From assembly GCA_051294905.1 (NCBI GenBank), contig CM119371.1, positions 24,926,001 to 24,990,000 on the forward strand: 64,000 nucleotides of DNA, written 5' to 3'. The notes below the pieces were generated by a model. The model worked only from the letters and a program-made list of their open reading frames with translations, had not been told where the DNA came from and did not search any database. The DNA comes from Botryllus schlosseri (taxonomy: Eukaryota). How positions within the stretch are numbered: the stretch's first letter is position 1; the number at the start of each line of letters is the position of its first letter. Shown here in pieces: positions 2,280-37,937 of this stretch. The position numbers were made by a program, and so were the translations under genes.

Positions 2280-5200
2280 CGGTGTTGAATATGTATCAAG
2301 TAGATAGTCATGTGAATGAGCCTTTGTTAATGTGTATATCGAAAATTATTATATATGATGGCATAGTTCAGTCGTGACAAATGACCGATCGTGTTCTAAG
2401 TATTTCCTCGCTATTGATTGCTAGCTGGATAATACTTTCAGTTCGGATTATTCGCACCTTCCGTACCGCTGTTTCGCACCTATAGAATAGTCTGCTGTTC
2501 ACAGTCACAACAAGAATCACAAGTATACACATTATACATTCATTGTATTTATTACTCTGAAATCAAACTCTTCACAAAAGCACGCACAATCGTATCATTA
2601 ACTTTTTTATCATCACCAAAATTATTCAAGTATTCCTTCAAAAAGGTGTGAAATAGGTTGCAAATCCCGCGATCGCTGACGATATAACACCTCAGACATA
2701 GCGATCACGCGCGACGTTATGTTACATACATACCGATTGCCACAAGGTAATATTTTGATAGTTTGGCACGGAACTGGATTTCACCGGTAAGATTTAATAA
2801 GTAACGAATAACAGAACTGCCACCGGTGGGACTTGAATACCAACAAATTGTCACTTATTTCTACTCTAACCGTAATCCTTTGCGAAGTTAACGCTCATTC
2901 GAAAAGGCGTGAAATAATTTTAAAATCCTACGACCGCTCACAGGATAATGCCTCAGACATTGCGACCCTCGTGATTTCGTGTTACAGAGATACCGATCAC
3001 TCACAAGGTAATATTTTGGTAATTAGCCCGTCACAGAACCGTCGTAGACGGCGATTCGTTTTCACACCTTGGAATAGCGATTGACTTTAGTCGAGGAACG
3101 AGAATCATGATAATACTCAATCGCGGTGGTATTTCGTCAACTTGAAACTCACTACAAAACTCAAGTTGAATCGTATCCGAATGCGTAAATTTATCACCTT
3201 GACATCAAGATAATATTATTCAAAAGTCCGTAAACATGGTACTGTCTTATATCAATAATATTAAGAATGTTGATCGCTTGATTGTCGGATTATTCACTCG
3301 TTGATTTGAAACAAACATTGAAACGCACAACTCTATCTGGTCTATAATTATTTTTTTACAACTGAGTTTCTGAAAATGCTATCATTATCACACCTCGAAA
3401 TTTTACCGTGTTAGAACACACAAGAGAGTCAAGCACAAAAACATTCACATGTGTTAAACCTAGTTTTCACTTATACTTGATTATATTACTAAAACTTGTA
3501 AACTATATTAATTCATCCTGGTGAACACGAATAGTGTTGCTCGCTTGTAATATTCACGTACTGATATGAATAATAACAACTCATGAGACCCTACAACTTT
3601 AATAACGAGCTGGTTACGAAACTGGAAAGGTAAACTCTATTCGTCTCAACATCTCAACATCTTACAACACTCGAAAGGGTCAATTACGAAACCACCGCCA
3701 AGTAAACCCGTTTGTAACTCACCCAATCAACTCAAACAGTATCAGTATGAAAACACCCAAGCATACACGAGTCCATACAATCACTAAAACCTAACGTCCG
3801 TAACAAGCTCGGCTGTATTCATATCCCTACGACGGGTCTTTTTTTTTCAACTGTAAAAGTCGTTACTATTTCGCAAGACAAAGTAATTACTACTCGATAT
3901 ATTTTGTAAGATAAAAGTAATTTCTACTCGGTGCAGGTGACTTGAGATTAACACATTACATTTAAGTATACGAGATTTGAATGTCTGACCAACGTAGTTG
4001 AGAATTCATTTCTTACAATCGAACGCTGGTGTTATATTCGAAGTTATCATGCTGTAAACATAAGGATTGACACATTGATTTGACATATGTTATAGTTGAT
4101 CATGACTTGAATATTAAATTATTTGCGTTAATTAGACACGGCGTTGTGGCAAATGTTATGACAGCAACAAACTTTTCAGTGCCATTGTTCTTAACATATT
4201 AAGTTGTGAAACTATACGTGTCTGAAATGTTCTTGATTGGAGAATTACTCCACCTCGATAAAAATCACTCTGCGCATCGCGATATCAGGAAATATTTTAC
4301 AAATGTAATTGTTTCCAGTAACCAAGACTAAAGATGAAACAGCAATATCGGTATTATTACATTCAACAACCAGTACAATTATTAAAATCTATCGTTTGCG
4401 ATAAACAACGCTAAAGATGCAATAATTCCATTATTCATACATTGAACATCCGATACAAAATGCTTTATTATCCCGATTCGCAACGGGTAATTGAAACGAC
4501 TAAGTGTAGAGTCAGTATATCACAATGACACGTCGTTACTATTGAATCCAGCAATTGATACGATTTATTGCCGGGATTTGTGACAGCGCATTGAAACATA
4601 CACAACTTACAGAGTGTGAAAATATCACTTTGGGTATCGAGTACCCTTTGAAGCGCGCAATCAATACATAATTCCAGTTGCACTCTCTAAGACATTGTGA
4701 AGTCTACGGATTTACACTTCAAGACTTTGATCAACACAGAAGCAATTTGGAATATCTTTACTGGACGCATCCTATTCAACTAGACTTGAGTATACGAAAA
4801 ACTCATAGCATTAACAAAATCGCAATAGGCGCTACACTGAAATTTACAAAATGTGTTTGTATTCTTGCTCAAAGTAGTGATCATGAATTATCATTTGAAT
4901 CTTCTAAAGTAATTGTAATCGTAAAACCAAACTTGCGAAAGTCATTACCATAACAAAAGAATATTGTAGGTTGCTTGCTAATTGTATGCCGGAAATATTT
5001 GTAGAACGCTCACGACCAAAGAAATCGGAAATTGTCATTCATCAAAGTAAATGTCGTCACAATACTCTGCCACTAAAAGACGTTACTCGTATGTGATTGA
5101 ATCGCCGGTAATTAACTCGCTAAATCAAACCCTAAGAAATTTCACTCACTCATCGGATATTAAACAGCGTCGCTTAATCGGTGTAGTTCGTTTTTTTCTA

Positions 5201-5951
5201 AATACAAATCATACCTAGCCAACAGAAAACAATTTTCACTCACTCGGTAATGAAAACAAGTGGTGGGTCTCCATTCGATATTTTGTTTGTGTCAAATACT
5301 TTGCAATGAACACATTTGAGTGGTTGAGCTTTACATCATCAAGCTGTCATTTTTAAATCAAGATTTCGGTCAACTTGTAAATGTATCATTTAACTAACCG
5401 ACATTTGGTGATTCGTGAACATACCAAACGATACACATCCACCTCCGATCTTAATTTCCATCATCGTAATAATCGAAGTACATTTCTTTCGAATTCGTAA
5501 CAACCGGCTTTTCTGTGACATGATAAATTTTTGACAAGTTATGCTTAGAAGATTGGTTGCATATCTCGAAAAATAATATACCGCTCATATTGATACTGTT
5601 ACTCGGTATTTTTCCCGTTGTCGATTTTCAAACGAGTAAAATTTATTACTTGAGTTTCTCCGCTTACTATATGTAAATGTAAACTCAGTCGTCTTTTAAC
5701 ATCACAAATACATTGATAAAAAGTAGGCAATCAAACGCTACAAGTTTAACTTTTGTAGGATGTGTATGATTACCCCACGCAACTCATTTCTTACCAAAGG
5801 TATATGAAATATATTCATGGTACACGAAAATACTCGATATTCCCATACTACGAACCTGTACAACGATTGGCGGTGCTTTCAACTGTTTCGATAACTCAAG
5901 AACTTTATTGTCTGAATGGATGTTCATGCATCTTAATAATCAAATAGTTCA
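2280..5951 (+). repeat. Left arm of the outer inverted repeat
   Basis: Pairs with 7257-9652 and 23011-24285, with scattered substitutions (e.g. ORF 5762 MYDYP vs ORF 7261-7446 MYDYS). Confidence 0.95.
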
Positions 5952-6859
5952 ACACAGAACTAGTATTAACAGAAACATCAGAGTTGTCTACACAAAAGTT
6001 TGTATGTGTACAGTATGCGAATACCATGTGTAAGTCCAGCACAATTGTGGTATACATCCGAGTTTAGTTAACACAAATTTATTACAACGGAGCCACGAAA
6101 ACTTTCGTGAAAGAAAAGCATACTCACTTCTGAGGGTTATGTCAATGCCATAGCAGTAAATCAAAAATATTCCTAACCCTTTGCACACCAGTGACAAATC
6201 ATACAACAAACATTTTTTGTGAGTCGAATTGTTGTTCAGCGTCAAGTCTACCTGTTGAATAGTGCATTAAAACAACACAGTCACAATTCAATTAAAACCA
6301 CGAATCTATTTTCATTTCGTCACAAACTGTCACATACAGAAAAAAAAAATTTCTTTCCCCAACGCATACTTGTGACCAATCGATTTCATTAAACACACAA
6401 CTCCATAAAAGTATTTACTTTCTACAACATAGACATTCCGATGTAGTCAAGAAATATTAAAACTGACACGACACGACTGAATGTAAGGGGATAGAAGTCT
6501 ATCGCATCGATTTACATGTGGTCTTCGCTACGGTTTCAAAAAACGAATCATCTATTTTGCATTGGTCGAGACCGAGCGAGCCAGTTACATGTATTCGCGG
6601 TAATGATTTTGCTTTTCATATGCGAATGATAGGTTTGCTACTCCGACAAATCAAATCAACAAACAACAACAATCTTCTGACGATCATAATAGCAATTTCA
6701 TTTGCCACCCCTTCGTAATTGTACACTCACGAAAAGTATATTGTACAACTCGGCAACTACGTTTAACAAGACCAATCACACTACCAGCGTTGAACACAAG
6801 ATACCTACCCAATTCAAAAATATCATACTGGTTTGGACAACTGACGTTTACCTGTGTAA

Positions 6860-7256
6860 AATTATCATTTTCACTTGGCGATCTATCCTTTCCTAGAGTA
6901 ACAAACCCTTGTCGTTTACAAATCTATTTTTTTTTCCTACAGCAAAAAACTATTTTCCCTTGGAAAAATACTTTTACGTAGAGTAACTAATCATTTTCTT
7001 TTGAAAATATATTTTCTCCCTGGGTAACAAACCCTTTTCGTTTGGAAAACTATCATTTACCTGAGTACCAATACCGTTTTCACTTGGCAGTCCGTCGTTT
7101 ACCTGGCTAAACATATCATTTTCACTTGGAAATCTATTTTTTCCCAGAGTAAGAAACCTTTTTCACTTGGAAATATATTTTTTCCCGGGTAACAAACCTT
7201 TTTCACTTGGAAATATATTTTTTCCCCGGGCAACAAACCTTTTTCGCTTGGAAATG
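6860..7256 (+). repeat. ~41-bp tandem array (TTTTCACTTGGAAATMTATTTTTTCCCNGGGTAACAAACC-like) in the outer element
   Basis: Repeated degenerate units; same unit as 14640-15075. Confidence 0.9.
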
Positions 7257-9652
7257 TGAACTATTTGATTATTGAGATGCATGAACATCCATTCAGACAA
7301 TAAAGTTCTTGAGTTATCGAAACAGTTGAAAGCACCGCCAATCGTTGTACAGGTTCGTAGTATGGAAATATCGAGTATTTTCGAGTACCATGAATATATT
7401 TCATATACCTTTGGTAAGAAATGAGTTGCGTGGAGTAATCATACACATCCTACAAAAGTTAAACTTGTAGCGTTTGATTGCCTACTTTTTATCAATGTAT
7501 TTGTGATGTTAAAAGACGACTGAGTTTACATTTACATATAGTAAGCGGAGAAACTCAAGTAATAAATTTTACTCGTTTGAAAATCGACAACGGGAAAAAT
7601 ACCGAGTAACAGTATCAATATGAGCGGTATATTATTTTTCGAGATATGCAACCAATCTTCTAAGCATAACTTGTCAAAAATTTATCATGTCACAGAAAAG
7701 CCGGTTGTTACGAATTCGAAAGAAATGTACTTCGATTATTACGATGATGGAAATTAAGATCGGAGGTGGATGTGTATCGTTTGGTATGTTCACGAATCAC
7801 CAAATGTCGGTTAGTTAAATGATACATTTACAAGTTGACCGAAATCTTGATTTAAAAATGACAGCTTGATGATGTAAAGCTCAACCACTCAAATGTGTTC
7901 ATTGCAAAGTATTTGACACAAACAAAATATCGAATGGAGACCCACCACTTGTTTTCATTACCGAGTGAGTGAAAATTGTTTTCTGTTGGCTAGGTATGAT
8001 TTGTATTTAGAAAAAAACAAACTACACCGATTAAGCGACGCTGTTTAATATCCGATGAGTGAGTGGAATTTCTTAGCGTTTGATTTAGCGAGTTAATAAC
8101 CGGCGATTCAATCACATACGAGTAACGTCTTTTAGTGGCAGAGTATTGTGACGACATTTACTTTGATGAATGACAATTTCCGATTTCTTTGGTCGTGAGC
8201 GTTCTACAAATATTTCCGGCATACAATTAGCAAGCAACCTACAATATTCTTTTGTTATGGTAATGACTTTCGCAAGTTTGGTTTTACGATTACAATTACT
8301 TTAGAAGATTCAAATGATAATTCATGATCACTACTTTGAGCAAGAATACAAACACATTTTGTAAATTTCAGTGTAGCGCCTATTGCGATTTTGTTAATGC
8401 TATGAGTTTTTCGTATACTCAAGTCTAGTTGAATAGGATGCGTCCAGTAAAGATATTCCAAATTGCTTCTGTGTTGATCAAAGTCTTGAAGTGTAAATCC
8501 GTAGACTTCACAATGTCTTAGAGAGTGCAACTGGAATTATGTATTGATTGCGCGCTTCAAAGGGTACTCGATACCCAAAGTGATATTTTCACACTCTGTA
8601 AGTTGTGTATGTTTCAATGCGCTGTCACAAATCCCGGCAATAAATCGTATCAATTGCTGGATTCAATAGTAACGACGTGTCATTGTGATATACTGACTCT
8701 ACACTTAGTCGTTTCAATTACCCGTTGCGAATCGGGATAATAAAGCATTTTGTATCGGATGTTCAATGTATGAATAATGGAATTATTGCATCTTTAGCGT
8801 TGTTTATCGCAAACGATAGATTTTAATAATTGTACTGGTTGTTGAATGTAATAATACCGATATTGCTGTTTCATCTTTAGTCTTGGTTACTGGAAACAAT
8901 TACATTTGTAAAATATTTCCTGATATCGCGATGCGCAGAGTGATTTTTATCGAGGTGGAGTAATTCTCCAATCAAGAACATTTCAGACACGTATAGTTTC
9001 ACAACTTAATATGTTAAGAACAATGGCACTGAAAAGTTTGTTGCTGTCATAACATTTGCCACAACGCCGTGTCTAATTAACGCAAATAATTTAATATTCA
9101 AGTCATGATCAACTATAACATATGTCAAATCAATGTGTCAATCCTTATGTTTACAGCATGATAACTTCGAATATAACACCAGCGTTCGATTGTAAGAAAT
9201 GAATTCTCAACTACGTTGGTCAGACATTCAAATCTCGTATACTCAAATGTAATGTGTTAATCTCAAGTCACCTGCACCGAGTAGAAATTACTTTTATCTT
9301 ACAAAATATATCGAGTAGTAATTACTTTGTCTTGCGAAATAGTAACGACTTTTACAGTTGAAAAAAAAGACCCGTCGTAGGGATATGAATACAGCCGAGC
9401 TTGTTACGGACTTAAGGTTTTAGTGATTGTATGGACTCGTGTATGCTTGGGTGTTTTCATACTGATACTGTTTGAGTTGATTGGGTGAGTTACAAACGGG
9501 TTTACTTGGCGGTGGTTTCGTAATTGACCCTTTCGAGTGTTGTAAGATGTTGAGATGTTGAGACGAATAGAGTTTACCTTTCCAGTTTCGTAACCAGCTC
9601 GTTATTAAAGTTGTAGGGTCTCATGAGTTGTTATTATTCATATCAGTACGTG
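7257..9652 (-). repeat. Outer right arm, proximal part
   Basis: Reverse complement of ~3555-5951. Confidence 0.95.
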
Positions 9653-9679
9653 AGTAGTAGTATAGATCGGTCGCGAACG

Positions 9680-9910
9680 GCTATTGTTTCTTATGGGCGC
9701 GGCGGCGAGCGGCTGGGAAAACTCGTGGTGGCGAGCGGCTCTTATTTCTTATGGGCGCGGCGGCGAGCGGCTATTGCGTCTTATGGGTGCGGCGGCAAGC
9801 GGCTCTTATTTCTTATGGGCGGGGTCGCAAGCGGCTGGGAAACCCGGGGTGGCAAGCGGCTTTTATGTCTTATGGGTGCGGTGGCGAGCGGCTATTGTGT
9901 CTTGTGGTCG
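9680..9910 (+). repeat. GC-rich subterminal tandem repeats (26-32 bp; TCTTATGGGYGCGGCGGCRAGCGGCT)
   Basis: TTATGGG at 9691, 9749, 9781, 9813 and 9870; mirrored at ~22747-22977. Confidence 0.9.
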
Positions 9911-12900
9911 CACGGTAACCCTTTTCAGTATAGGGATCGCTCGCACGCGGCTTCGTTGTTGGCATGTCGTACTCCGTGTTGAATATGTATCAAGTAAATA
10001 GTCATGTGATTGGTCCTTTGTTAATGTGTATATTCCAAATTACGGCGAGTACGACAATGATATATCGTTATTCTTATGGACGCGGCGATGATTCGTACTT
10101 TCGGGTATAGGCTGCGGGTGGAATGTCGTACTTTCAACAAAAAAGACGTGAAAATAGTTTGCAAAATCTAGGAATTACTCGCATGGTAATGTTTGGGTAA
10201 TTAGATTATCACAGAGCCAGCGTAGAAGGCGATTCGAATATCAACAATAACCACGCTCACAAACTAACACTTCAAAAAGATGTGAAATATTTGTAAAATC
10301 CTACGATCGCCCACAAGATAACACCTCAGACATAGTCATCTTTCACGACTTGGTGTCATAGCCATACCGATCACTCACGCGGTGAAATTTTCGTAAGCAG
10401 TTTGGCACAGAACTTGATTTCACTCGTAAGATTTAATAAGTAACGAATAACAGACCGCCAGTGTCGGTAACTTGAATAGCGACAAATTGTCACTTATTTC
10501 CGCTCTAACCCTAATCCTTTGTGAAGTGAACGCTTATTCAAAAGGGTGTGATATAATTTTAAAATCCAACGACCACTCACCGGATAATGCTTCAGACATA
10601 GCAATCCCTCATGCCCGCTCACAAGGTAATATTTCGGTAATTAGTTTGTCACAGATCCGTCGCAGACGGTGATTCGAAAACCAACAATTTGTCATTTGCC
10701 CGCGATCGCTATATGTTTCACGCCTCCGGAATAGTGGCTGACTTTAGTTGCGTGATAAGATCCATGAAAATATTCAATCAATGCGTTAGTTTGTCAACTT
10801 GAATTGAAACTCACTACACAAATCAAGTTGAATCGTATTTGAATGTATTGATTCGACCCAACTCAAATCCTTTGACAAATCCTATTAACGCGATCTGTTG
10901 AATCGAACGTAACCTGAATATTACTGACGCCAAAATTAGCCCGCATCGGATTATTCACACATTCCGCACCGCTGTTTTCACACCTATAGAATCAATACCA
11001 ACTAGCTCAATGAGAATCAGGAATAACAAGTATACAATAATTGTATTTAATACTGAGAAATCAAACGCTTAACAAAAACACGCAACTAATCATTTGCCAA
11101 CTCTAGCATTACCAAAAAAATTCAGGCATTGTCGATTGAAAATCCTTGAGTCCATATCAAAAATGTTATAGTGCGGTGTCGGAATCCATTCGCGGGATGT
11201 ACTAAAGGTAAATTCAGATAATCCAAAATGAAATATTTGGACTTTGACATAGTCTGAATTGAAATAAATTGACAAACATGACTACCAACTTTCAATCCAG
11301 TCATATTTAGAATTAGATTTGAAACAAGTAATGAAACCTTACAACTCTATTCACGACTGAGTTTTCCGTTTGTCCAATAGAGTTTCAGTAATTACTATCG
11401 CGATATTTTAATGTGTTACTACACACAATCGAGTCAGTCAATGAAATACCACCTGTTGTAAATATTTCTAACTTGACAACCACTTGTGCATACCACGATC
11501 TAGTTGCGACGCGCTGAGTTAAATCGGAATATTTCAATCTATTTGTCGAAACCTTGAACAAGTTGTCTGGTTATTTTTTTGTTGCAATTGAGTTAACGGA
11601 AATAGTATTACGTCTCGACATTTTAACATCTTACCATACTCCAAAAGAGTCAACAAGGAAAAACCTTGTCACGTAAATCCGATTGTAACTCACCCAATCA
11701 ACTCACCAGTATCCGTATGGAAAGTAGTCAAGATTACGCAAGTACATACAATCGCTACAATCTAAAATCCATAGCAAGTTCGGTTGTAGTCATATACCGC
11801 CAACTCGTCTTTTTTGTTCAACTGTGAAAGTAATTACTACTCGGTATACCGTGTAACATAAAGTAATTACTACTCGGTGCACGCAACTTGAGATTGCCAT
11901 ATGTTGAGAATATACGACATTTGAAAGTCTGACCAACGTAGTTAAGAATTCATTTCTCACGATCAAACGCAGGCGTTATCTTGAAAATTATCATGATGTA
12001 AACATAAGGATTGACACAGTGATTTGACATATGTAATAGTTGATCATGACTTGACTATTAAATTATTTGCGTTAATTAGACCCGGCGTTGTGGTAAAGAT
12101 TATTGTGACAGCAACAAACTTTTCAGTACCATTGTTATTAACATATTGAGTTGTAAACTATGTGTGTCTAAAATGTTCTCGATTGGAAAATTATTCAGCC
12201 TTGGTACAAACCACGCAGTGTATTGTGGATATCAGGAAATATTTTACAAATGTAATTGTCTGCAGTAAACAAGACTAAAGATGAAACAACAATTTCCTTT
12301 GTTGAACAATAACCGGTGCAATACCTTATTGTCGGTGAGAATTGAAACACTTTCGCGCATTACCTGGTGTCAAGATATCACACTAGGTGAATTGACATAC
12401 CACCATTTGATTAATGCTTAATCCGTTCGCGTCATTTCACACACACTTTGATCATTACAAAAAAACAAATTGGAATATGTTTGCTAGGCACCACCTATTC
12501 AACTATACTTGAGTAATACAGAAACCTCTCAGCATTAATAAAATCGAAATGTGCGCTACACTGAAATCTACAAAATGTGTTTGTATTGCTGTTCGTAGTA
12601 GTGATATCGATTTGAACCTCCATCATCTAACCAAACTACTGAGAGTCGTTGTCAATTTACATGACGTTCACTGATTACATACTAGAACTATTTGTGCAAC
12701 GCACACGATCAGAGAAATTGGACATTTTTCCATTGCCATTCGTCAAAGTAAATGTCGTCACAATAATCAGTCACTAAAAGACCATATACTTGTATGTGAT
12801 TGAATCGCCGACAATTAACTCGGTAAATCAAACCCCTGAGAAATTTCACTCAGTCATTGGATAGGAAACAGCGTCGCTTAATCGGTGTGAGTCGTTTTTT

Positions 12901-14639
12901 CTAAATACTAATCATATCTGTCCAGCCAAGAACAATTTTCACTCACTTGGGTAACGAAACCAGTGCCCAATATCAATACAAGATATTTTCGTCACACAAA
13001 AATAATCAACTTCACTCGATATTCCCGTACTACGAAACTGTACAAAGGTTACATGTTTTTGTATGACATGGAATTAATACCGATCGAAGTAACCGTATTG
13101 GAAATAACTTTTAAACAAACACACTCTACGTGGTTAACATTCTCGTCGATTCTATTGTGATTAATGTATACTTCATGTGATCTGGATTCATTTCGATATG
13201 GCTAAACATTCAACCTCGACGGATACGAATTGTCACACACTCAAGTAATATCATACCAAATAGTTATTTACAAGACACAGAAAATTTGTTATGGTCGTTT
13301 CGACTTTATTACTGGAGATACTCATCACTTCGCTTAATACAATCTAGATTTAAACTCCATCGAACCTTTGGTGTCTATCGTTTTGCTGGATACGAATTAT
13401 GTTAGTCTAAGAGTACACAATTTTCACTATCTTGGGTTATGAACTCAGTGTGTTAGCGATCATTCAATATTTTGTAGTATCAACTAGCTACTTCGTAGGA
13501 TACGAATGATCATCCTCACAACTCTTACAAAAGTACGAAGGATATTTACATCACACAAAGTAATCGACTTTACTCGATATCCTCACACTACGAAACTGAA
13601 TGGTTGGTTTGACTCTAGAAACTGTTCTGATGTCACAAGAACTTTTTCATACGAATGGTTACGTATCTAAATATTCAAATAATCCAACACACGACTATAG
13701 TACTTACAGAAATATCATAGTTCTTGTAACAAAGTTGTATAAGTATAATGTTTATCGTAAGTCCTACATAGCCATGATATCCGTCCGAGTTTGACTTTTA
13801 GAAAACATTATACTGACATCGCGACATCTTTCGAAATTAAAACCACGGTGACTGCTTCAGAGACCTACCAATGATATTGCAGTAATACAGTTACTTCCAC
13901 AAAAGAGTATGTATTCGACTTGCTTACCACAAATCTAACGCACAAAACAATTTATTTTACTAACGAGAAGCGCCGAGCCTCACATCAAAACAACTAGAAA
14001 GTGGAACTATATTAAAAAACGTCGCTAACCTTTGTGCACCAGCTGTAAATCACACAAGCAACATGTTTCAAGATTCTGGTTATTGAAAAACGTTAAAGTG
14101 TTTCTCCTGCACCAAGTCGTTATGTTGACGAAAGGGTATATTGTAATACCATGATCGATTTGCATTCGTTGGTCACAAACTGTCACTACTCTAAATAATT
14201 ATTTTTCACTCAAACACAAAAGCATACTCGTCGCCAATCGTTTTCATCAAGCACGAGTTCAAGAAGCTTACTTACTACGACATGAATTGTTATTTTTATG
14301 TTGTGTAAATAGGTAATAATTTATTTTAGTAACACTACATCAACATCATCGAGTTGTGCGAATAGATTTACATGTGGTTTTAATCGAAGTACACAGCACG
14401 GTCTAATGTAGATTCATCTCTATTGTACAGCAACTCGGTAATCGAAATGCATTAACATTTAAACAACGATCTTGGTTCGTCACGCGAAAAATATCTTTAC
14501 TGTCACAACACTCTGATACTCTGTACAAGATGTGTAAATCCTTTTCACACTCATAATAATACACTAACGGGATACCGACGTCAAGCAACAACGTTTAACA
14601 ACATCACTGACACTGAACATACGATACCTGCACAAGTAA

Positions 14640-15075
14640 AAATATCATTTTCACCAGGAGGTCAGCCGTTACTTGTGTACAATTACGATTTTCCCTTGGG
14701 GGTTTAGCGTTACCCGAGTAACAAAACCATTTTCACTTGGAAATATATGTTTTCCCTCAACAACAAACGTTTTTCACTTGGAAATATATTTTTTCCCTGG
14801 GTAACAATCCTTTTTCACTTGGAAATCTATTTTTTCCCTGGGTAACAATCCTTTTTTCACTTGGAAATCTATTTTTTCCCTGGGTAACAATCCTTTTTCA
14901 CTTGGAAATCTATTTTTTCCCTGGGTAACAAACCATTTCCACTTGGTGGTCCGTCGTTTACCTGAGTAAAAATATCATTTTCCTTTTGAGATCCGACGTT
15001 TACCCAGTGTAACAATACATTTTCTCTTGGCCATCTAGCTTTTCCTAAAGTAACAAAACCATTTCATTTTGAAAT
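14640..15075 (+). repeat. 41-bp tandem array in the inner left arm
   Basis: CACTTGG at 14734, 14775, 14816, 14858, 14899 and 14940, with degenerate flanking units. Confidence 0.92.
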
Positions 15076-16348
15076 CTGACAAACACACCTGCCAATTTGG
15101 TATTTGTTGTATTGACGACAGTTTGAAATAGATTACAACGAACAGTGACGGAAATGTACACGGACTACCAGTTTCAAAGTATTCCCACATCAGTCGTATC
15201 ACATCAATATCATCGGTTAACCACATGAAATAACAATACGCCGTTGTACACGGAAATGCATGTTTTGGAAAATTGGACAATAGGCTTCGATAGGTCTGTG
15301 ATGTCCGGGTTCGTACTTTAGTTTTTGCACAGAGTCCATACCTCTTAATAAAACACCACCTCGACTTTGGTACCTGGCTGGTACATGGATAACGGTGGTC
15401 GGAAATCGATGAATATAGGTTCTCGTCGTGCTAACAGTTCCGGGCTACTTGTGATTTTTCTCACACATGTTTACTATATTGTGTCACTCTTTATTGGTCA
15501 ATACATATCCCATCGTTCAGTCTGAAATCGGAAACCCGAGCAAGTATTAACCGGATCCGGATATCAACTCTGAATCAAAAAACCAATGAAACATGTCACA
15601 CCCTGTGTTTCCATGGAAGTAACAAGACATTACACATCAAGTATACTTCGCGATTGTTCATAGATACCAAGTATTCGCGTAAACGAGGTGTGTGACATTA
15701 CATACATCATGGATAACATCATGGCCGGCATTACAAACATCATGGATGACAAATTCATGTTCTCAAGTCTCGTCATGAACCGACTCTGTACATTCAATGT
15801 GGGGTAGAGGACTTGGAGACAGACAAACACACATATTTGACCGTAACATGATCTAAGCACGAACCGACATGTATTCAACTTGGAGAAAAATGAGTCGCGT
15901 CGTATTTCACGAGATTACATCCCCTTTTGTGGTTCACACCTTGATTTTGCTTACATCGTGATCCAGACCTCGGAGTGTAGTAAAATCGGGCTATGTAGTT
16001 TAATTACTTGCTCACTCCCTGTGTGTTGGTGGTGGTCATACCCTGCAAACTTTTTTTTTTCTTAGAACGTAGTGTTTCGCCTTACATCAGTTGGTTCAAT
16101 GTATGTACCGAGTTGTGAAAGCTGCCGCTGTTTTGACTATGCGTCACAATCAATACTAAAACGGGAATTCGTTACTCGTTGAAACGTCGCAGTCAGACAT
16201 CGTTAACAGCGATTCCGCGTATGGAAATCTTAAATTCGATTGCGGTTTTGTAATGTAATCCGGGTTACTGTGTTTCTGTGGTGTGAAGACTAAATTCGTG
16301 TTGATCCCCCCTGCAAGAGTGCGATGTCTATTTCACACCTAGAGTTAT

Positions 16349-16355
16349 TATAAAA
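16349..16355 (+). promoter_or_regulatory. Candidate TATA box (TATAAAA) for the loop ORF
   Basis: Canonical TATAAAA ~120 bp upstream of the ATG at 16470, in the unique loop. Confidence 0.4.
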
Positions 16356-16469
16356 CGCATCTTCGAAACCATTGGTCTACTTCATCTGCTTGCATGTCGA
16401 AACGGACCATAACCACAAGACTCTAACCCACCACATTCGTGGTTTCAGTTGATCGTATCGAAGAATATC

Positions 16470-16745
16470 ATGTCCATCCGTTTTACCACCCACAGATTTC
16501 TCCATCCTCACACTTTAATGCTAAGACACAGACAAGATGCGGTTGTGGAAATATTGAAAATGAGAAAGCAGACCTTGGTGTCATTTGATTTGGATTTTAC
16601 ACCCGATGAACCCCTCATTCGTACTGCGCATTGGGGTGCGGATTCTATCGTCGATGTCGATGGAAAAGAAATGTACAGATTTGTTGGTGTCGTGGATATT
16701 CAACGAAAATCGGGGTACATGATTGTACGCGGTTACCGTATATGA
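16470..16745 (+). CDS. Hypothetical 91-aa protein (MSIRFTTHRFLHPHTLMLRH...GYMIVRGYRI) in the palindrome loop
   Basis: ATG in ATCATG context, intronless, wholly within the non-repeated loop. Globular-looking composition; upstream TATA; AATAAA at 17162. No family recognised. Confidence 0.45.
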   Translation: MSIRFTTHRFLHPHTLMLRHRQDAVVEILKMRKQTLVSFDLDFTPDEPLIRTAHWGADSIVDVDGKEMYRFVGVVDIQRKSGYMIVRGYRI

Positions 16746-16806
16746 CTGTGAAGATATCGCTATACATAACGTGCTGTTCACCGTATCGATCGCACCAACG
16801 AATATC

Positions 16807-19800
16807 CATGTAACGGTCAAATATGTGTGTTTGTCTGTCTCCAAGTCCTCTACCCCACATTGAATGTACAGAGTCGGTTCATGACGAGACTTGAGAACAT
16901 GAATTTGTCATCCATGATGTTTGTAATGCCGGCCATGATGTTATCCATGATGTATGTAATGTCACACACCTCGTTTACGCGAATACTTGGTATCTATGAA
17001 CAATCGCGAAGTATACTTGATGTGTAATGTCTTGTTACTTCCATGGAAACACAGGGTGTGACATGTTTCATTGGTTTTTTGATTCAGAGTTGATATCCGG
17101 ATCCGGTTAATACTTGCTCGGGTTTCCGATTTCAGACTGAACGATGGGATATGTATTGACCAATAAAGAGTGACACAATATAGTAAACATGTGTGAGAAA
17201 AATCACAAGTAGCCCGGAACTGTTAGCACGACGAGAACCTATATTCATCGATTTCCGACCACCGTTATCCATGTACCAGCCAGGTACCAAAGTCGAGGTG
17301 GTGTTTTATTAAGAGGTATGGACTCTGTGCAAAAACTAAAGTACGAACCCGGACATCACAGACCTATCGAAGCCTATTGTCCAATTTTCCAAAACATGCA
17401 TTTCCGTGTACAACGGCGTATTGTTATTTCATGTGGTTAACCGATGATATTGATGTGATACGACTGATGTGGGAATACTTTGAAACTGGTAGTCCGTGTA
17501 CATTTCCGTCACTGTTCGTTGTAATCTATTTCAAACTGTCGTCAATACAACAAATACCAAATTGGCAGGTGTGTTTGTCAGATTTCAAAATGAAATGGTT
17601 TTGTTACTTTAGGAAAAGCTAGATGGCCAAGAGAAAATGTATTGTTACACTGGGTAAACGTCGGATCTCAAAAGGAAAATGATATTTTTACTCAGGTAAA
17701 CGACGGACCACCAAGTGGAAATGGTTTGTTACCCAGGGAAAAAATAGATTTCCAAGTGAAAAAGGATTGTTACCCAGGGAAAAAATAGATTTCCAAGTGA
17801 AAAAAGGATTGTTACCCAGGGAAAAAATAGATTTCCAAGTGAAAAAGGATTGTTACCCAGGGAAAAAATATATTTCCAAGTGAAAAACGTTTGTTGTTGA
17901 GGGAAAACATATATTTCCAAGTGAAAATGGTTTTGTTACTCGGGTAACGCTAAACCCCCAAGGGAAAATCGTAATTGTACACAAGTAACGGCTGACCTCC
18001 TGGTGAAAATGATATTTTTACTTGGGCAGGTATCGTATGTTCAGTGTCAGTGATGTTGTTAAACGTTGTTGCTTGACGTCGGTATCCCGTTAGTGTATTA
18101 TTATGAGTGTGAAAAGGATTTACACATCTTGTACAGAGTATCAGAGTGTTGTGACAGTAAAGATATTTTTCGCGTGACGAACCAAGATCGTTGTTTAAAT
18201 GTTAATGCATTTCGATTACCGAGTTGCTGTACAATAGAGATGAATCTACATTAGACCGTGCTGTGTACTTCGATTAAAACCACATGTAAATCTATTCGCA
18301 CAACTCGATGATGTTGATGTAGTGTTACTAAAATAAATTATTACCTATTTACACAACATAAAAATAACAATTCATGTCGTAGTAAGTAAGCTTCTTGAAC
18401 TCGTGCTTGATGAAAACGATTGGCGACGAGTATGCTTTTGTGTTTGAGTGAAAAATAATTATTTAGAGTAGTGACAGTTTGTGACCAACGAATGCAAATC
18501 GATCATGGTATTACAATATACCCTTTCGTCAACATAACGACTTGGTGCAGGAGAAACACTTTAACGTTTTTCAATAACCAGAATCTTGAAACATGTTGCT
18601 TGTGTGATTTACAGCTGGTGCACAAAGGTTAGCGACGTTTTTTAATATAGTTCCACTTTCTAGTTGTTTTGATGTGAGGCTCGGCGCTTCTCGTTAGTAA
18701 AATAAATTGTTTTGTGCGTTAGATTTGTGGTAAGCAAGTCGAATACATACTCTTTTGTGGAAGTAACTGTATTACTGCAATATCATTGGTAGGTCTCTGA
18801 AGCAGTCACCGTGGTTTTAATTTCGAAAGATGTCGCGATGTCAGTATAATGTTTTCTAAAAGTCAAACTCGGACGGATATCATGGCTATGTAGGACTTAC
18901 GATAAACATTATACTTATACAACTTTGTTACAAGAACTATGATATTTCTGTAAGTACTATAGTCGTGTGTTGGATTATTTGAATATTTAGATACGTAACC
19001 ATTCGTATGAAAAAGTTCTTGTGACATCAGAACAGTTTCTAGAGTCAAACCAACCATTCAGTTTCGTAGTGTGAGGATATCGAGTAAAGTCGATTACTTT
19101 GTGTGATGTAAATATCCTTCGTACTTTTGTAAGAGTTGTGAGGATGATCATTCGTATCCTACGAAGTAGCTAGTTGATACTACAAAATATTGAATGATCG
19201 CTAACACACTGAGTTCATAACCCAAGATAGTGAAAATTGTGTACTCTTAGACTAACATAATTCGTATCCAGCAAAACGATAGACACCAAAGGTTCGATGG
19301 AGTTTAAATCTAGATTGTATTAAGCGAAGTGATGAGTATCTCCAGTAATAAAGTCGAAACGACCATAACAAATTTTCTGTGTCTTGTAAATAACTATTTG
19401 GTATGATATTACTTGAGTGTGTGACAATTCGTATCCGTCGAGGTTGAATGTTTAGCCATATCGAAATGAATCCAGATCACATGAAGTATACATTAATCAC
19501 AATAGAATCGACGAGAATGTTAACCACGTAGAGTGTGTTTGTTTAAAAGTTATTTCCAATACGGTTACTTCGATCGGTATTAATTCCATGTCATACAAAA
19601 ACATGTAACCTTTGTACAGTTTCGTAGTACGGGAATATCGAGTGAAGTTGATTATTTTTGTGTGACGAAAATATCTTGTATTGATATTGGGCACTGGTTT
19701 CGTTACCCAAGTGAGTGAAAATTGTTCTTGGCTGGACAGATATGATTAGTATTTAGAAAAAACGACTCACACCGATTAAGCGACGCTGTTTCCTATCCAA

Positions 19801-22800
19801 TGACTGAGTGAAATTTCTCAGGGGTTTGATTTACCGAGTTAATTGTCGGCGATTCAATCACATACAAGTATATGGTCTTTTAGTGACTGATTATTGTGAC
19901 GACATTTACTTTGACGAATGGCAATGGAAAAATGTCCAATTTCTCTGATCGTGTGCGTTGCACAAATAGTTCTAGTATGTAATCAGTGAACGTCATGTAA
20001 ATTGACAACGACTCTCAGTAGTTTGGTTAGATGATGGAGGTTCAAATCGATATCACTACTACGAACAGCAATACAAACACATTTTGTAGATTTCAGTGTA
20101 GCGCACATTTCGATTTTATTAATGCTGAGAGGTTTCTGTATTACTCAAGTATAGTTGAATAGGTGGTGCCTAGCAAACATATTCCAATTTGTTTTTTTGT
20201 AATGATCAAAGTGTGTGTGAAATGACGCGAACGGATTAAGCATTAATCAAATGGTGGTATGTCAATTCACCTAGTGTGATATCTTGACACCAGGTAATGC
20301 GCGAAAGTGTTTCAATTCTCACCGACAATAAGGTATTGCACCGGTTATTGTTCAACAAAGGAAATTGTTGTTTCATCTTTAGTCTTGTTTACTGCAGACA
20401 ATTACATTTGTAAAATATTTCCTGATATCCACAATACACTGCGTGGTTTGTACCAAGGCTGAATAATTTTCCAATCGAGAACATTTTAGACACACATAGT
20501 TTACAACTCAATATGTTAATAACAATGGTACTGAAAAGTTTGTTGCTGTCACAATAATCTTTACCACAACGCCGGGTCTAATTAACGCAAATAATTTAAT
20601 AGTCAAGTCATGATCAACTATTACATATGTCAAATCACTGTGTCAATCCTTATGTTTACATCATGATAATTTTCAAGATAACGCCTGCGTTTGATCGTGA
20701 GAAATGAATTCTTAACTACGTTGGTCAGACTTTCAAATGTCGTATATTCTCAACATATGGCAATCTCAAGTTGCGTGCACCGAGTAGTAATTACTTTATG
20801 TTACACGGTATACCGAGTAGTAATTACTTTCACAGTTGAACAAAAAAGACGAGTTGGCGGTATATGACTACAACCGAACTTGCTATGGATTTTAGATTGT
20901 AGCGATTGTATGTACTTGCGTAATCTTGACTACTTTCCATACGGATACTGGTGAGTTGATTGGGTGAGTTACAATCGGATTTACGTGACAAGGTTTTTCC
21001 TTGTTGACTCTTTTGGAGTATGGTAAGATGTTAAAATGTCGAGACGTAATACTATTTCCGTTAACTCAATTGCAACAAAAAAATAACCAGACAACTTGTT
21101 CAAGGTTTCGACAAATAGATTGAAATATTCCGATTTAACTCAGCGCGTCGCAACTAGATCGTGGTATGCACAAGTGGTTGTCAAGTTAGAAATATTTACA
21201 ACAGGTGGTATTTCATTGACTGACTCGATTGTGTGTAGTAACACATTAAAATATCGCGATAGTAATTACTGAAACTCTATTGGACAAACGGAAAACTCAG
21301 TCGTGAATAGAGTTGTAAGGTTTCATTACTTGTTTCAAATCTAATTCTAAATATGACTGGATTGAAAGTTGGTAGTCATGTTTGTCAATTTATTTCAATT
21401 CAGACTATGTCAAAGTCCAAATATTTCATTTTGGATTATCTGAATTTACCTTTAGTACATCCCGCGAATGGATTCCGACACCGCACTATAACATTTTTGA
21501 TATGGACTCAAGGATTTTCAATCGACAATGCCTGAATTTTTTTGGTAATGCTAGAGTTGGCAAATGATTAGTTGCGTGTTTTTGTTAAGCGTTTGATTTC
21601 TCAGTATTAAATACAATTATTGTATACTTGTTATTCCTGATTCTCATTGAGCTAGTTGGTATTGATTCTATAGGTGTGAAAACAGCGGTGCGGAATGTGT
21701 GAATAATCCGATGCGGGCTAATTTTGGCGTCAGTAATATTCAGGTTACGTTCGATTCAACAGATCGCGTTAATAGGATTTGTCAAAGGATTTGAGTTGGG
21801 TCGAATCAATACATTCAAATACGATTCAACTTGATTTGTGTAGTGAGTTTCAATTCAAGTTGACAAACTAACGCATTGATTGAATATTTTCATGGATCTT
21901 ATCACGCAACTAAAGTCAGCCACTATTCCGGAGGCGTGAAACATATAGCGATCGCGGGCAAATGACAAATTGTTGGTTTTCGAATCACCGTCTGCGACGG
22001 ATCTGTGACAAACTAATTACCGAAATATTACCTTGTGAGCGGGCATGAGGGATTGCTATGTCTGAAGCATTATCCGGTGAGTGGTCGTTGGATTTTAAAA
22101 TTATATCACACCCTTTTGAATAAGCGTTCACTTCACAAAGGATTAGGGTTAGAGCGGAAATAAGTGACAATTTGTCGCTATTCAAGTTACCGACACTGGC
22201 GGTCTGTTATTCGTTACTTATTAAATCTTACGAGTGAAATCAAGTTCTGTGCCAAACTGCTTACGAAAATTTCACCGCGTGAGTGATCGGTATGGCTATG
22301 ACACCAAGTCGTGAAAGATGACTATGTCTGAGGTGTTATCTTGTGGGCGATCGTAGGATTTTACAAATATTTCACATCTTTTTGAAGTGTTAGTTTGTGA
22401 GCGTGGTTATTGTTGATATTCGAATCGCCTTCTACGCTGGCTCTGTGATAATCTAATTACCCAAACATTACCATGCGAGTAATTCCTAGATTTTGCAAAC
22501 TATTTTCACGTCTTTTTTGTTGAAAGTACGACATTCCACCCGCAGCCTATACCCGAAAGTACGAATCATCGCCGCGTCCATAAGAATAACGATATATCAT
22601 TGTCGTACTCGCCGTAATTTGGAATATACACATTAACAAAGGACCAATCACATGACTATTTACTTGATACATATTCAACACGGAGTACGACATGCCAACA
22701 ACGAAGCCGCGTGCGAGCGATCCCTATACTGAAAAGGGTTACCGTGCGACCACAAGACACAATAGCCGCTCGCCACCGCACCCATAAGACATAAAAGCCG

Positions 22801-23004
22801 CTTGCCACCCCGGGTTTCCCAGCCGCTTGCGACCCCGCCCATAAGAAATAAGAGCCGCTTGCCGCCGCACCCATAAGACGCAATAGCCGCTCGCCGCCGC
22901 GCCCATAAGAAATAAGAGCCGCTCGCCACCACGAGTTTTCCCAGCCGCTCGCCGCCGCGCCCATAAGAAACAATAGCCGTTCGCGACCGATCTATACTAC
23001 TACT
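16807..23004 (-). repeat. Right ~6.2-kb inverted arm of the inner element
   Basis: Reverse complement of 9653-15850; includes the mirrored 41-bp array (~17582-18017). Confidence 0.97.
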
Positions 23005-23010
23005 TACGTG

Positions 23011-24630
23011 AATATTACAAGCGAGCAACACTATTCGTGTTCACCAGGATGAATTAATATAGTTTACAAGTTTTAGTAATATAATCAAGTATAAGTGAAA
23101 ACTAGGTTTAACACATGTGAATGTTTTTGTGCTTGACTCTCTTGTGTGTTCTAACACGGTAAAATTTCGAGGTGTGATAATGATAGCATTTTCAGAAACT
23201 CAGTTGTAAAAAAATAATTATAGACCAGATAGAGTTGTGCGTTTCAATGTTTGTTTCAAATCAACGAGTAAATAATCCGACAATCAAGCGATCAACATTC
23301 CTAATATTATTGATATAAGACAGTACCATGTTTACGGACTTTTGAATAATATTATCTTGATGTCAAGGTGATAAATTTACGCATTCGGATACGATTCAAC
23401 TTGAGTTTTGTAGTGAGTTTCAAGTTGACGAAATACCACCGCGATTGAGTATTATCATGATTCTCGTTCCTCGACTAAAGTCAATCGCTATTCCAAGGTG
23501 TGAAAACGAATCGCCGTCTACGACGGTTCTGTGACGGGCTAATTACCAAAATATTACCTTGTGAGCGATCGGTATCACTGTAACACCAAATCACGAGGGT
23601 CGCAATGTCTGAGGCATTATCCTGTGAGCGGTCGTAGGATTTTAAAATTATTTCATGCCTTTTCGAATGAGCGTTAACTTCGCAAAGGATTACGGTTAGA
23701 GTAGAAATAAGTGACAATTTGTTGGCATTCAAGTCCCACCGGTGGCAGTTCTGTTATTCGTTACTTATTAAATCTTACCGGTGAAATCCAGTTCCGTGCC
23801 AAACTATCAAAATATTACCTTGTGGCAATCGGTATGTATGTAACATAAAGTCGCGCCTGATCGCTATGTCTGAGGTGTGATATCGTCAGCGATCGCGGGA
23901 TTTGCAACCTATTTCACTCCTTTTTGAAGGAATACTTGAATAATTTTGGTGATGATAAAAAAGTTAATGATACGATTGTGCGTGCTTTTGTGAAGAGTTT
24001 GATTTCAGAGTAATAAATACAATGAATGTATAATGTGTATACTTGTGATTCTTGTTGTGACTGTGAACAGCAGACTATTCTATAGGTGCGAAACAGCGGT
24101 ACGGAAGGTGCGAATAATCCGAACTGAAAGTATTATCCAGCTAGCAATCAATAGCGAGGAAAGACTTAGAACACGATCGGTCATTTGTCACGACTGAACT
24201 ATGCCATCATATATAATAATTTTCGATATACACATTAACAAAGGCTCATTCACATGACTATCTACTTGATACATATTCAACACCGTGCGACAGATGCCTA
24301 TACCCGAAAGGGCGATTCACGGCCGCACCCATAAGAACACATGGCGAGTCACCAGAGACCGCGTAAGAATACATGACAGGCGAATCACCGCCACCGCCTA
24401 TAGCAAAAAAGGCGAGTCACGACCACGAGTTTTCACGGCGAGTCACCGCCACGAGCTATACCTGAAAGGGCGAATCACGACCGCACCCATAAGAACACAT
24501 GGCGACTCACCGCCTAGAGGGGGGTCTAAAAAGGCGAGTCCCCACCCCCGGTTTTCTGGCGAGTCACCACCCCGCCCATAAGAGCCCCATGCAAAAGGGG
24601 GTGTGGTCACGACCGATCATCTATACTACT
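23011..24630 (-). repeat. Outer right arm, distal part, with GC-rich subterminal repeats (~24295-24600) and terminus
   Basis: 23011-24285 is the reverse complement of 2280-3554. Repeated GGCGAGTCAC and CCCATAAGA units; ends CTATACTACT. Confidence 0.9.
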
Positions 24631-24689: not shown

Positions 24690-26478
24690 AACTCATGAGT
24701 GCTTAGCTCCCATGAAACCTATCGCGTGATTTCGATGGTCAGCATAGTTTATGTTGCCTTGTCGCCTTCGGAGCCAAAATTTTCCATAATGCATGAATGA
24801 AATAGGTTGTAATTGCATATATATGTCCCTATAAACTTTTTATCCTCTCAGCCCAAGTAATCACATTTACCAGCAGCGCTGAGTGAGCTGTTCTAGTGAA
24901 AGATAAAGCCCACGCAATTAATAATTGAACATATATTCGGCGTGCCCGTTGGTAAAATTAAATCTTTACATGTTATTTTGTTACCCTGTGTCCGCTATAT
25001 AGTCAAAAGTTATTGAAACGCCTTAACGTATTAAACTAAAGTAAGCACAGCACTATTCAAAGTTGGTATTTCGCCACTGGCAAATAATTTTCTCTTATCG
25101 ATGTTATTTGTCCGTGGGGTGCAGATTGCGATGACATGATAATTCGGCACGAGCGATAAAAGCACCTATTTACAATTAGACTTATATACATCGAAGTTTA
25201 CGCTCAACATAAGGGCAATTCTCCTCAGCTAAGATTTCACGCTGACAATCTTTTTGACACACTTCTCGGAGTCCCATAATCACCGGAACTTCCTATGTCT
25301 TCGTTCATCGTGGCGTGGTAATGGCCGACGCCGAAATGTATATTTCTATTTTATATAATTTTGCGCATTCTTCCGTGGGGGAGTCGTTAGGACATGATGT
25401 TTAATTTATGTTCATTCATCGAAATAATTTAGGGCATCCTCCGAGCTGACCGATTGGGGGTTTGGGTTGCAGGAGTTTCGGTCTTGGTAAGAGGTCAAAG
25501 TTCAGTCTGTCTTTTTGAAACTTTGGTATTGGAAATACTTCGCGCATTAATCGCGCTCGAGAACCATTCGTCTATAATAAACCATCTAATGTGTGGTATA
25601 TTAAGGGTCAAATCAAGGTTGTTATATCAACAATCGGGTACGGTCTCATACCCTGTGGTTCGAATTCTCCCGAATTCACATCGGTGATTGGCAATAAGGA
25701 GAAATAAATGGTATTGGATTTTGTCTTAGTGCTTTGTGTAACTATAAGTAACTGAGAATAGGATATCTATATCTGCTCAAATTGAATTTAGTACTGTATC
25801 CAGTTATTATTTTAACATGAATGTATTCCAAACCAGCAACTCATATTATATAACGTTCATGCGAGGTTGTGAACCACAACACGAGATATAGTGTCATCCT
25901 CTATGATACGATGACGAAATATTCTGACGATTTAATTTTGTATCTCTCAAATACAAGTATAGTTAGTTATTCATTTCGTGCACAAAGCTTCAAAACATAT
26001 TTCATGTACTAGGGGCTGTTACTCTCAATCAAAGTATACAGTGCCTCCTTCTTCGATTTTCACACGCTGTGGGCTGCGAGTAATAATACATAATTTGAAA
26101 CATTTCGTTGAAAATAACCCTAGCAAGTAAGACGGCAGTGATTTAAATAACGGGAAATCGGCGATCTAAAAGTACGCGCAATTCGTTTTATATGAATTAT
26201 AATAACCCACTACATTTATGTAAACATATGTAGCAAACATCGTAGCGTAGCGCGACCAAAAATTTGGGCGTTTGGCATGTTTTGTGAAATATTTATTTGT
26301 TCTGAATACTCATTAATAATAAGTCCTATACAACCACATCATCTACGGCATTTTTCTTCAGCGCCCCCTTATCCCCACTAAGCCCAGCGCCCCCCATATC
26401 ACCCCCTTAGCGTTTCCGCCCCCTTCAGAATCGTCAGCGCCCCTTGGGGGACGCTGGTGGCAAGGTTAAGAACGACTG
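24690..26478 (+). mobile_element. 5'-truncated copy of the hAT-type element at 35329-36876
   Basis: Shares CCAAAATTTTCCATAATGCATGAATGA, TATCCTCTCAGCCC and the GCGCCCC-rich end; terminates GGTTAAGAACGACTG. Confidence 0.75.
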
Positions 26479-30627: not shown

Positions 30628-32398
30628 CAGTGTTGTGATGACTCGAGTCATGACTTGACTCGAGTCAGACTCGAGTCACCTTTTTCGCATGACTAGACTT
30701 GACTCGAGTCACTTTGCAAAAATGACTTGACTTGACTTGACTCTGCGTATCAGAAATGAGGATTGACTCGTGACTCGGACCAAAATTCACGAGTCAATTT
30801 CAAGTCATCAAGTAATCGGTGTGGATTATTATTATTATTATAGGTAAAAACATTGGCATGAGTGGCGCTTATCACAACTGAAGGCTTTTTGCGCCACGGA
30901 CAGAAACAAGTTAAACGCTACAGAAAGTTCATGATATATAACTGAGATAGGTACACATGTGCACATAAAAAAGTTTTACAATATTCCTCGAGTCGATCTA
31001 ACATATTCAACAAGATATCGCAGTACTTGTGGATCAGTCAGTAGGGTTCGCATGTCAAAATTTACATTCTTCGACTCTGCATGGCGTCGTAAGCATTCTC
31101 TTTGATAGCGGTATTTTCTGCAATTCATGAGATAATGCTCTACGGTTTCCTCAATACCACATGCTTCGCACAGTTGCGAGTCGATGCATCCAATCTTGTT
31201 GAGATGGTGGTTTAGTCTGCAATGCGTCGTTCTTAACCGCAGCACAATCGAGTTTCCCAACCTTGTATCCATTTCAGATAGTCTGTCATGTACCGAGGGT
31301 CGCAGATCTTTGTACGCTCTCCCAGTATCTGTGGATTGATAGATGCGGTCCCATTCATCTTTGCAGCTCTTTAGCAAGTACGACCGTACGTCGGCGAGTG
31401 GGATGGCATGACTCCGGCGTATGTGTGTATTAGCAGCTCCCGCCCTTGCTAATTGATCTGCAGATTCATTACCGCGTATTCCGGAGTGTCCAGGCACCCA
31501 TACAAACGATATGGTAATTTCTGCTGTCCGCAACTGATGATTCAGCTCAATAATTTCATTCACCAGTGGATGAGGATTGACTCGTGACTCGGACCAAAAT
31601 TCACGAGTCAATTTCAAGTCATCAAGTAATCGGTGTGGATAAAAATCACTGTATCTTGCATATATTCGGATTGTTCGCAAAACGCTGGTGTAACCCGTGA
31701 GAGCGAATAATCATTCAAATATTGTGTGTTTCACTGAGTCTCGATTGTTCTCTCACAAAAAATTGACCGCAAACGAAGTGATCGTATCTTACATCTTACG
31801 TTGTCGTAAATCGAGTACGTAATAAAATAGCGAAATGTCTATTTCTGCTCTCTGTCCTTACCTTAACCAAACCTCTTGTTACATTGAAATCGAATATAGT
31901 TTATATAGTTCTCAACCATTGTCGCAGGCTCGATTTGTATCATTAATTTGTAAATGGGTAATGCATTGCATCTTATCAATTCGTTTGTCTATTCTCTATT
32001 TTGGCTGGTAACTTTAAACTGAGGCTATGCAAATACGTGGTTCAACAGTTCTACGTATATGTGAGAGATACAGCGTCTTCTTGCGAGGATATTCAACTCT
32101 ATATTCGTTCATTGGTTAGGAATTAATGACCACTCAATCTGTATTTCATTCAGCTAGCAGATTGCAATGACGTAATCATGCCTCATACTTCGAAAAGGCA
32201 ACTTGACTTGAAATGTGACTTGACTCGTGACTTGACTTGACTTGATTCGACTTGACTCGAGTCACATTTGAAAATCGAGTGACTTGACTTGACTCGAGTC
32301 ACATTTGAAAATCGATTGACTTGACTTGACTCGAGTCAAAATGTGCAATGACTCGAAATGACTCGTGACTCGAAGGTGGTGACTTGATCCCAACACTG
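30628..32398. mobile_element. hAT-type non-autonomous element with GACTCGAGTC/GACTT subterminal repeats; contains a LINE fragment
   Basis: TIRs CAGTGTTG...CAACACTG; 8-bp TSD CTTTGGGT/TTTTGGGT (7/8). Confidence 0.85.
30827..31569 (-). mobile_element. 5'-truncated RNase H-bearing non-LTR retrotransposon (LINE) 3' end
   Basis: Encodes the RNase H C-terminus (ISFVWVPGHSGIRGNESADQLA) and a CCHC-type finger (CEACGIEETVEHYLMNC); stop at 30976; (TAA)n tail; flanked by a 71-bp direct duplication. Confidence 0.9.
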
Positions 32399-37787: not shown

Positions 37788-37937
37788 TGTAATAATAGCT
37801 GCTTCTTTACTAAGCTCAGCAACAGACTGTAGAGTACATGTTTATTACTCGTCGGTCTACAACACCCTGATTAATGAAACAAGGATGCAGGCTGGAGCCT
37901 TGAAAAACATAAACGGAAATAATCAAATATTACAACA
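37788..37937 (-). repeat. 3' LTR
   Basis: Direct repeat of 42171-42320; preceded on the minus strand by the purine tract GGAAGGAAGA. Confidence 0.97.

Follow-up and report, generated by a model that had tools for sequence, protein, structure and literature searches.

Two nested palindromes with Maverick-type ends in Botryllus schlosseri: probable helper-dependent satellites with arms that evolve in lock-step

The 64,000-nucleotide stretch of the Botryllus schlosseri genome considered here (GenBank assembly GCA_051294905.1, contig CM119371.1, positions 24,926,001 to 24,990,000; hereafter the window) consists of animal-like DNA in which dispersed repeats and one Gypsy retrotransposon occur, and holds three long inverted pairs which resolve into two nested palindromic elements, an inner one lying within an outer one (Table 1). 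The inner element (9653-23004, 13,352 bp) starts with (AGT)3 and finishes with (ACT)3, and a perfect target duplication of 6 bp surrounds it. The same Maverick-type (AGT)n//(ACT)n motif is present at the right end of the outer element, of which the left end is missing. As the outer left arm keeps the target of the inner element as one hexamer, an internal empty site, this single copy and the duplication around the inner element together fix the order of nesting independently.

Within each element the two arms are nearly identical. The inner arms differ at two of 6198 bases (14632 and 15845), and the outer arms (2280-5951 against 7257-9652 plus 23011-24285) at 23 of 3672 bases, with one 1-base gap; that is, 0.03% (0.004-0.12) versus 0.63% (0.40-0.94), which is not a chance difference (binomial P 1.7e-8). 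An earlier interpretation made from the sequence alone (the sequence-only reading) had held the outer arms to be more mismatched, as fits the nesting, and had predicted that arms pair by element rather than by side; both claims hold. Seven blocks in which all four arms align supply 2077 columns free of gaps. Pairing by element is seen at 420 of them, pairing by side or crosswise at none, while 15 are private to one outer arm (five to the left and ten to the right, taking the inner element as outgroup) and two fall elsewhere; 170 gap columns are likewise common to the arms of one element. The pattern that would speak against pairing by element, left arm with left arm, is absent. There is also a weak, post hoc excess of mismatches near the loops: the two inner mismatches both fall in the fifth of the arm next to the loop (P 0.04), and the 200 bases nearest the loop contain four of the 24 outer differences (P 0.04), an excess without significance when the distance is set to 500, 900 or 1240 bases.

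Table 1. Components of the outer and inner elements, in window coordinates
Feature	Position	Strand	Basis
Outer element, left arm	2280..5951	+	99.1-99.4% reverse complement of 7257-9659 and 23005-24285
Internal empty site: target hexamer of the inner element, present once	3555..3560	-	Sequence and junction
Outer loop, single copy, no gene, homologous to inner arm 13680-15075	5952..7256	+	BLAST blocks 5820-6010, 6316-6396, 6791-7255
Outer 41-bp tandem array, about 11 units; last unit broken off at base 28 of 41, where loop meets arm	6813..7255	+	
Outer right arm, loop-proximal part, closing with the left copy of the target duplication	7257..9652	-	
Target-site duplication of inner element (6 bp), left copy	9647..9652	+	
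Inner left arm, 6198 bp: (AGT)3 terminus, GC-rich subterminal repeats 9678-9907, non-coding body, 41-bp array 14635-15088	9653..15850	+	
Inner loop, 956 bp, single copy; boundary identical in related contigs of public runs	15851..16806	+	
91-aa orphan gene in inner loop; TATA-like box 16349-16355	16470..16745	+	Conservation; three homologous clusters
Inner right arm, 6198 bp, (ACT)3 at end	16807..23004	-	
Target-site duplication of inner element, right copy	23005..23010	+	
Outer right arm, distal part, with a GC-rich terminal region (24286-24630) that closes in (ACT)2 at 24630	23011..24630	-	

The elements are related to one another at a much greater distance. The sequence-only reading had described many substitutions and indels between elements whose own arms are near-identical, and about 21% of aligned columns indeed differ between the two. 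The three arm blocks that it had matched as colinear (about 2760-3180 with 10400-10840, 3700-4350 with 11680-12290, and 5040-5250 with 12740-12950) agree at 84.5%, 85.1% and 87.0% of their ungapped columns; the global scores are 422, 754 and 278, against maxima of -30, -26 and -22 among 20 shuffles per block pair. Colinearity does not extend throughout, in that 2443-2634 matches 10946-11130, out of order relative to 2636-3183 and 10270-10845; and the 41-bp array, formerly placed in the arms of both elements, occurs once in the outer element, in its loop, and once per arm in the inner. Alignments at E<1e-3 cover 2958 of 4977 outer bases (59%) and 3065 of 6198 inner-arm bases (49%). Strictly defined, a transposon family shares 80% identity over 80% of its length, and the values here, about 79% identity within blocks and the coverage just given, lie below both figures. 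Common ancestry thus stands, while the label of one family gives way to that of sister subfamilies of one lineage. An old tandem duplication of about 260 bp is visible within the arms of both elements (2634-2763 and 2895-3024; 10270-10607).

The outer left arm and loop track the inner left arm from 9976 to 15075, and then turn in mid-unit (28 of 41 bases) inside the array; the outer loop is homologous to an inner arm, and inner 15080-16806 finds nothing matching in the outer element. The turn point has moved between the two elements. Most simply, the outer element would derive from a 13-kb palindrome by a central loss of about 3.8 kb, comprising distal arms, loop and gene; it may otherwise be a separate short-armed subfamily. 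Position 2280, the first of the range given in the sequence-only reading, does not mark a natural terminus of the outer element: for its last 345 bases (24286-24630) the window contains no left partner, and neither the displaced left end nor the outer target site was found within it. A larger insertion may have displaced the outer terminus upstream of the window. The recurrence of the flank hexamer at 1756 was rejected as the outer target site, there being no end motif at that position. Adjoining the truncated end, the minus strand of 2255-2279 resembles a CACTA/EnSpm-type end, with no partner end in the window.

Parts of the window are present in 20 of 24 listed public sequencing runs, from 10 studies, and three DNA contig runs (X1, X4 and X11) and one RNA run (X24) were compared with 5945-16812. 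Contig records matching this region number 167,360 in X1, 12,257 in X4 and 2,106 in X11, with very deep cover in every bin, the depth sums of contigs not being copy numbers. High repetition in the runs, the intact duplication and the 0.03% arm difference show elements that are repeated and recently mobile without enzymes of their own. The inner turn point is shared among relatives: one record, about 87% alike, stops at 15850, and 15851 and 15855 are covered as substitutions at high depth. Run X4 also contains family members with shorter or different loops (15862-16462) and with one 121-bp subterminal unit fewer (9786-9908). Among 40 variant rows selected from 855, 28 lie in arms, and at 24 of these 28 the letter found in the window stands on both arms (17 of 17 inner, 7 of 11 outer); at the other four, all outer, the partner arm carries the family letter, as expected of post-insertion mutations. 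At eight of the 17 listed inner sites the window letter makes up no more than 2% of summed depth in all three DNA runs, yet occupies both arms. Taken with the shared inner turn point, these family-rare alleles on both inner arms indicate that arm symmetry is restored over short times, on a layout that is itself inherited.

Long-read sequencing is known to yield spurious, near-perfect palindromes of several kilobases, and as no single run record spans the compared stretch, fold-back or chimeric reads might be suspected of having produced both elements during assembly. We consider this extremely improbable given the exact 6-bp duplication, the empty site in the other arm, the end motifs, the gene-bearing loop and the distinct differences between arms, along with a loop boundary that is identical in independent runs.

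No stop-free frame exceeds 131 aa in 2280-24630; the Maverick core genes (polymerase, integrase, ATPase, protease, capsid) are absent, and neither the frames nor Pfam reveal a transposase in either element. Four element open reading frames returned nothing above cut-off in Pfam, and there were no Rfam and no tRNA matches. Genes hidden in the shared arm blocks were rejected on indel lengths, of which 3 of 24 are multiples of three, and on mismatch spacing, which lacks a 3-base rhythm. The ratio of observed to expected CpG is 1.2-1.4 in the arms (2280-15850) versus 0.76 in the Gypsy element and 0.81 in the left flank, and the palindromic elements are without CpG loss.

The inner loop is the site of what conservation marks as a real coding gene, its 91-aa product having three homologous clusters, all of 91 aa, at 86, 73 and 68% identity. 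Searches with this protein returned nothing above cut-off in Pfam and nothing in PHROGs (P0001); the best Atlas score, 0.77, is a lead below use, and the predicted fold (predicted local distance difference test, pLDDT, 34.7) is unusable. A WD40 repeat protein recovered by profile search (6e-5) was rejected as a repeat artefact, the same search having yielded one family member. A metagenome locus (1 of 212 candidates, 31% identity) on a bacterial-looking contig was also rejected. None of 55 candidates in viral contigs was confirmed, and a search for longer forms confirmed none of 742. Altogether these searches gave the protein neither a family nor a fold nor a context. No RNA run is listed as containing the sequence. 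Out of 12.9 million records, run X24 contributed 359 reads; 93% of these reads continue into unlike sequence, and they show no peak at the loop gene.

According to published descriptions, Mavericks have 5'-(AGT)2//(ACT)2-3' ends, 6-bp duplications, terminal repeats of 46-1447 bp and an intact size of 12.7-24.6 kb (PMC8097293). The present elements resemble Mavericks/Polintons (PMC8097293; 10.1101/2023.08.22.554363) in end motif and, as regards the inner element, in the 6-bp duplication and the size of 13.35 kb, but lack core genes, and their repeats, 6198 bp in the inner (93% of the element) and at least 3672 bp in the outer, exceed that range. Without core genes and with repeats of such excessive length, these are not autonomous Mavericks but behave as a defective or satellite form would. 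We therefore propose, with a probability of roughly 0.7, that both elements are non-autonomous Maverick/Polinton satellites belonging to two sister subfamilies, with arms that are reset during helper-driven replication.

Under this proposal a helper Maverick, a virus-like element with protein-primed replication, would supply polymerase, terminal protein and integrase. During strand-displacement replication outside the chromosome, the displaced strand would fold into a 6-kb stem with a 1-kb loop, and a nascent or broken strand extending past the loop would be completed on the opposite arm, which would thereby be rewritten to its terminus and receive substitutions, indels and block moves alike. 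The helper integrase would then insert a copy with matched arms, after which the arms would drift in the chromosome (to 0.03% in the inner element and 0.63% in the outer), with patchy conversion at most. The turn point would be inherited but movable. For the outer element, the history may have run from a central loss of about 3.8 kb, by asymmetric deletion or by a switch inside the 41-bp array, through loss of the left end, to the insertion of the inner element. More tentatively, the two elements could represent an old, self-perpetuating class of hairpin satellites of animal Maverick viruses, in which one non-coding arm, doubled around a small conserved gene and re-copied in nearly every round, evolves as a single arm; the loop gene might in that case be a tool for exploiting the helper.

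That the arms evolve in lock-step is plain from the comparisons above; the cause would probably lie in replication. The sequence-only reading had proposed a long-lived lineage with arm identity regenerated at replication or by gene conversion. Its first half is borne out as far as the joint evolution of arms within each element (420 columns against none); the age of the lineage is suggested by an element-to-element distance of 0.21 (Kimura two-parameter 0.24), about 39 times the outer arm difference, on a clock that is not calibrated for a freely replicating element. With respect to mechanism, the data favour a reset tied to mobilisation over the choice left open there, because asymmetries acquired in the chromosome persist in the integrated outer element (23 substitutions, one gap, the 13.35-kb insertion in one arm and the missing left end). 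The young inner element, with its many rare symmetric alleles, supports a reset at mobilisation from the other side.

Several observations weigh against the proposal. Gene conversion between the arms of an inserted copy might be what mainly keeps them identical, as happens in sex-chromosome palindromes, with no special part for replication; conversion between palindrome arms is established (PMC7999016), and in the outer arms a mismatch-free tract of 1146 bases (3965-5109), improbable under uniform drift (P 0.003-0.004), contains two of the four rare symmetric outer alleles, as conversion in the chromosome would have it. Differences are also about twofold fewer in the closer outer arm segments (12 of 2403) than in the distant ones (12 of 1269), the direction that conversion predicts, albeit without significance (P 0.13). 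In addition, the comparison is based on two elements only; the variant rows are a selection and the contig depths are sums, as stated above; no public-run row shown decides whether the 7256/7257 junction is private to this copy; and the terminal motif occurred in no stretch of the viral contigs, and helper, polymerase, integrase and free linear form are components posited by the model. As the main cause, conversion is nevertheless unlikely. The outer element retains 24 differences, a one-sided insertion of 13.35 kb and a missing end; the inner has eight listed rare both-arm alleles beside two differences in 6.2 kb; and a block shifted by several hundred bases, as well as many indels, are mirrored exactly between arms. 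We take the evidence to suggest some in-place conversion after insertion, patchy at most, and on account of these signs the arm difference is a rough clock only.

The differing turn points, and an outer junction in the middle of an array unit, the outcome to be expected of independent snap-backs, are also compatible with there having been no long-lived palindromic lineage at all. Each subfamily would then have arisen when the end of its own Maverick, already diverged from the other, folded back once, and the homology would be that of the parents. This we hold to be quite improbable: the rare both-arm alleles need symmetry to have been re-made after the origin of the subfamily, the inner turn point is common to relatives about 87-92% alike, and some 5 kb of shared non-coding DNA is atypical of autonomous ends, given repeats of 46-1447 bp (PMC8097293).

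Among described systems, the nearest published case to the satellites proposed here is that of the butterfly polintons (10.1101/2025.02.07.637071), which have expanded terminal repeats of about 2 kb and mobile forms without polB; as described, however, they keep core genes and their repeats are coding and a third as long, whereas here non-coding arms make up nearly the whole element. Snapback genomes of adeno-associated virus (PMC8235507) similarly consist of one end and its mirror image around a loop, and their replication depends on a helper, but they are described as transient by-products with variable turn points, as opposed to the integrated, heritable, highly repeated elements seen here, whose loop is fixed and carries a gene and whose subfamilies have diverged. 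For protein-capped Streptomyces replicons, repair by copying to the end has been proposed to make the terminal inverted repeats alike and to alter their length (PMC7205883); those replicons are bacterial, are not integrated mobile elements as that account presents them, and their repeats flank a large unique core. Sex-chromosome palindromes (PMC7999016) share the arm-to-arm identity, but do not move, and in-place conversion keeps their arms alike. The palindromes of a tunicate genome paper (PMC12448946), considered as a possible earlier sighting, are gene-spanning synteny blocks and thus another thing, and neither Mavericks nor Polintons are mentioned in the main text of that paper. Maverick derivatives that are palindromic throughout were not found described in the literature searched, which did not include Repbase, supplements, the founding Polinton paper or most subscription papers.

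Further parallels exist in the palindromic deletion derivatives of the protein-primed linear plasmids of yeast, which are cytoplasmic and have arms that are likewise homogenised, and in the panhandle repair of adenovirus ends. Foldback transposons such as Drosophila FB and Galileo resemble the present elements in their long inverted arms with internal tandem arrays and in arm identity, and it might be argued that both palindromes are cut-and-paste transposons of this or a similar kind, moved by an ordinary transposase and Maverick-like in their end letters by chance, the more so as no Maverick gene is present. Foldback elements have other ends and target duplications. The (AGT)n//(ACT)n motif in both elements, the 6-bp duplication around the inner one, and the lack in cut-and-paste movement of any step that re-copies 6-kb arms, together make this explanation very unlikely.

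Beyond the sequence-only reading, the present analysis adds the recognition of the ends as Maverick/Polinton, the target duplication, the shift of the turn point and the loop gene. The fold-back (panhandle) replication of Mavericks/Polintons in animals is a model rather than an observation, and lock-step 6-kb arms in a repeated, gene-poor derivative offer thousands of countable sites for asking where and when arms are copied, as against conversion in the chromosome. If the satellite proposal is true, then Mavericks would have defective-interfering or satellite parasites of their own that colonise the germline, and on the more tentative reading each insertion would be a dated record of an otherwise unseen intermediate of Maverick replication. 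It would also follow, more broadly, that long near-perfect palindromes, which are usually unstable, can be an abundant class of repeats that automatic annotation leaves unclassified.

Elsewhere in the window, an intact-looking Gypsy-type long terminal repeat retrotransposon occupies 37788-42320, with a minus-strand open reading frame at 38001-42140 (1379 aa) for reverse transcriptase, RNase H and integrase; its 150-bp long terminal repeats are identical, it has a 5-bp target duplication, and it sits in a dispersed repeat of about 300 bp. At 30756-31710, a stop-free minus-strand frame of 244 aa with RNase H and weak zf-RVT matches is the tail of a non-LTR element, and most of this frame is bracketed by an exact 71-bp direct repeat (30756-30826, 31570-31640). 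Other dispersed repeat families, 69-83% alike, lie at 451-1272 and 44695-45419, and at 24690-24960, 35445-35778 and 42321-42574. A short imperfect palindrome is located at 45995-46226, and neither it nor the dispersed repeats have an Rfam or tRNA match.

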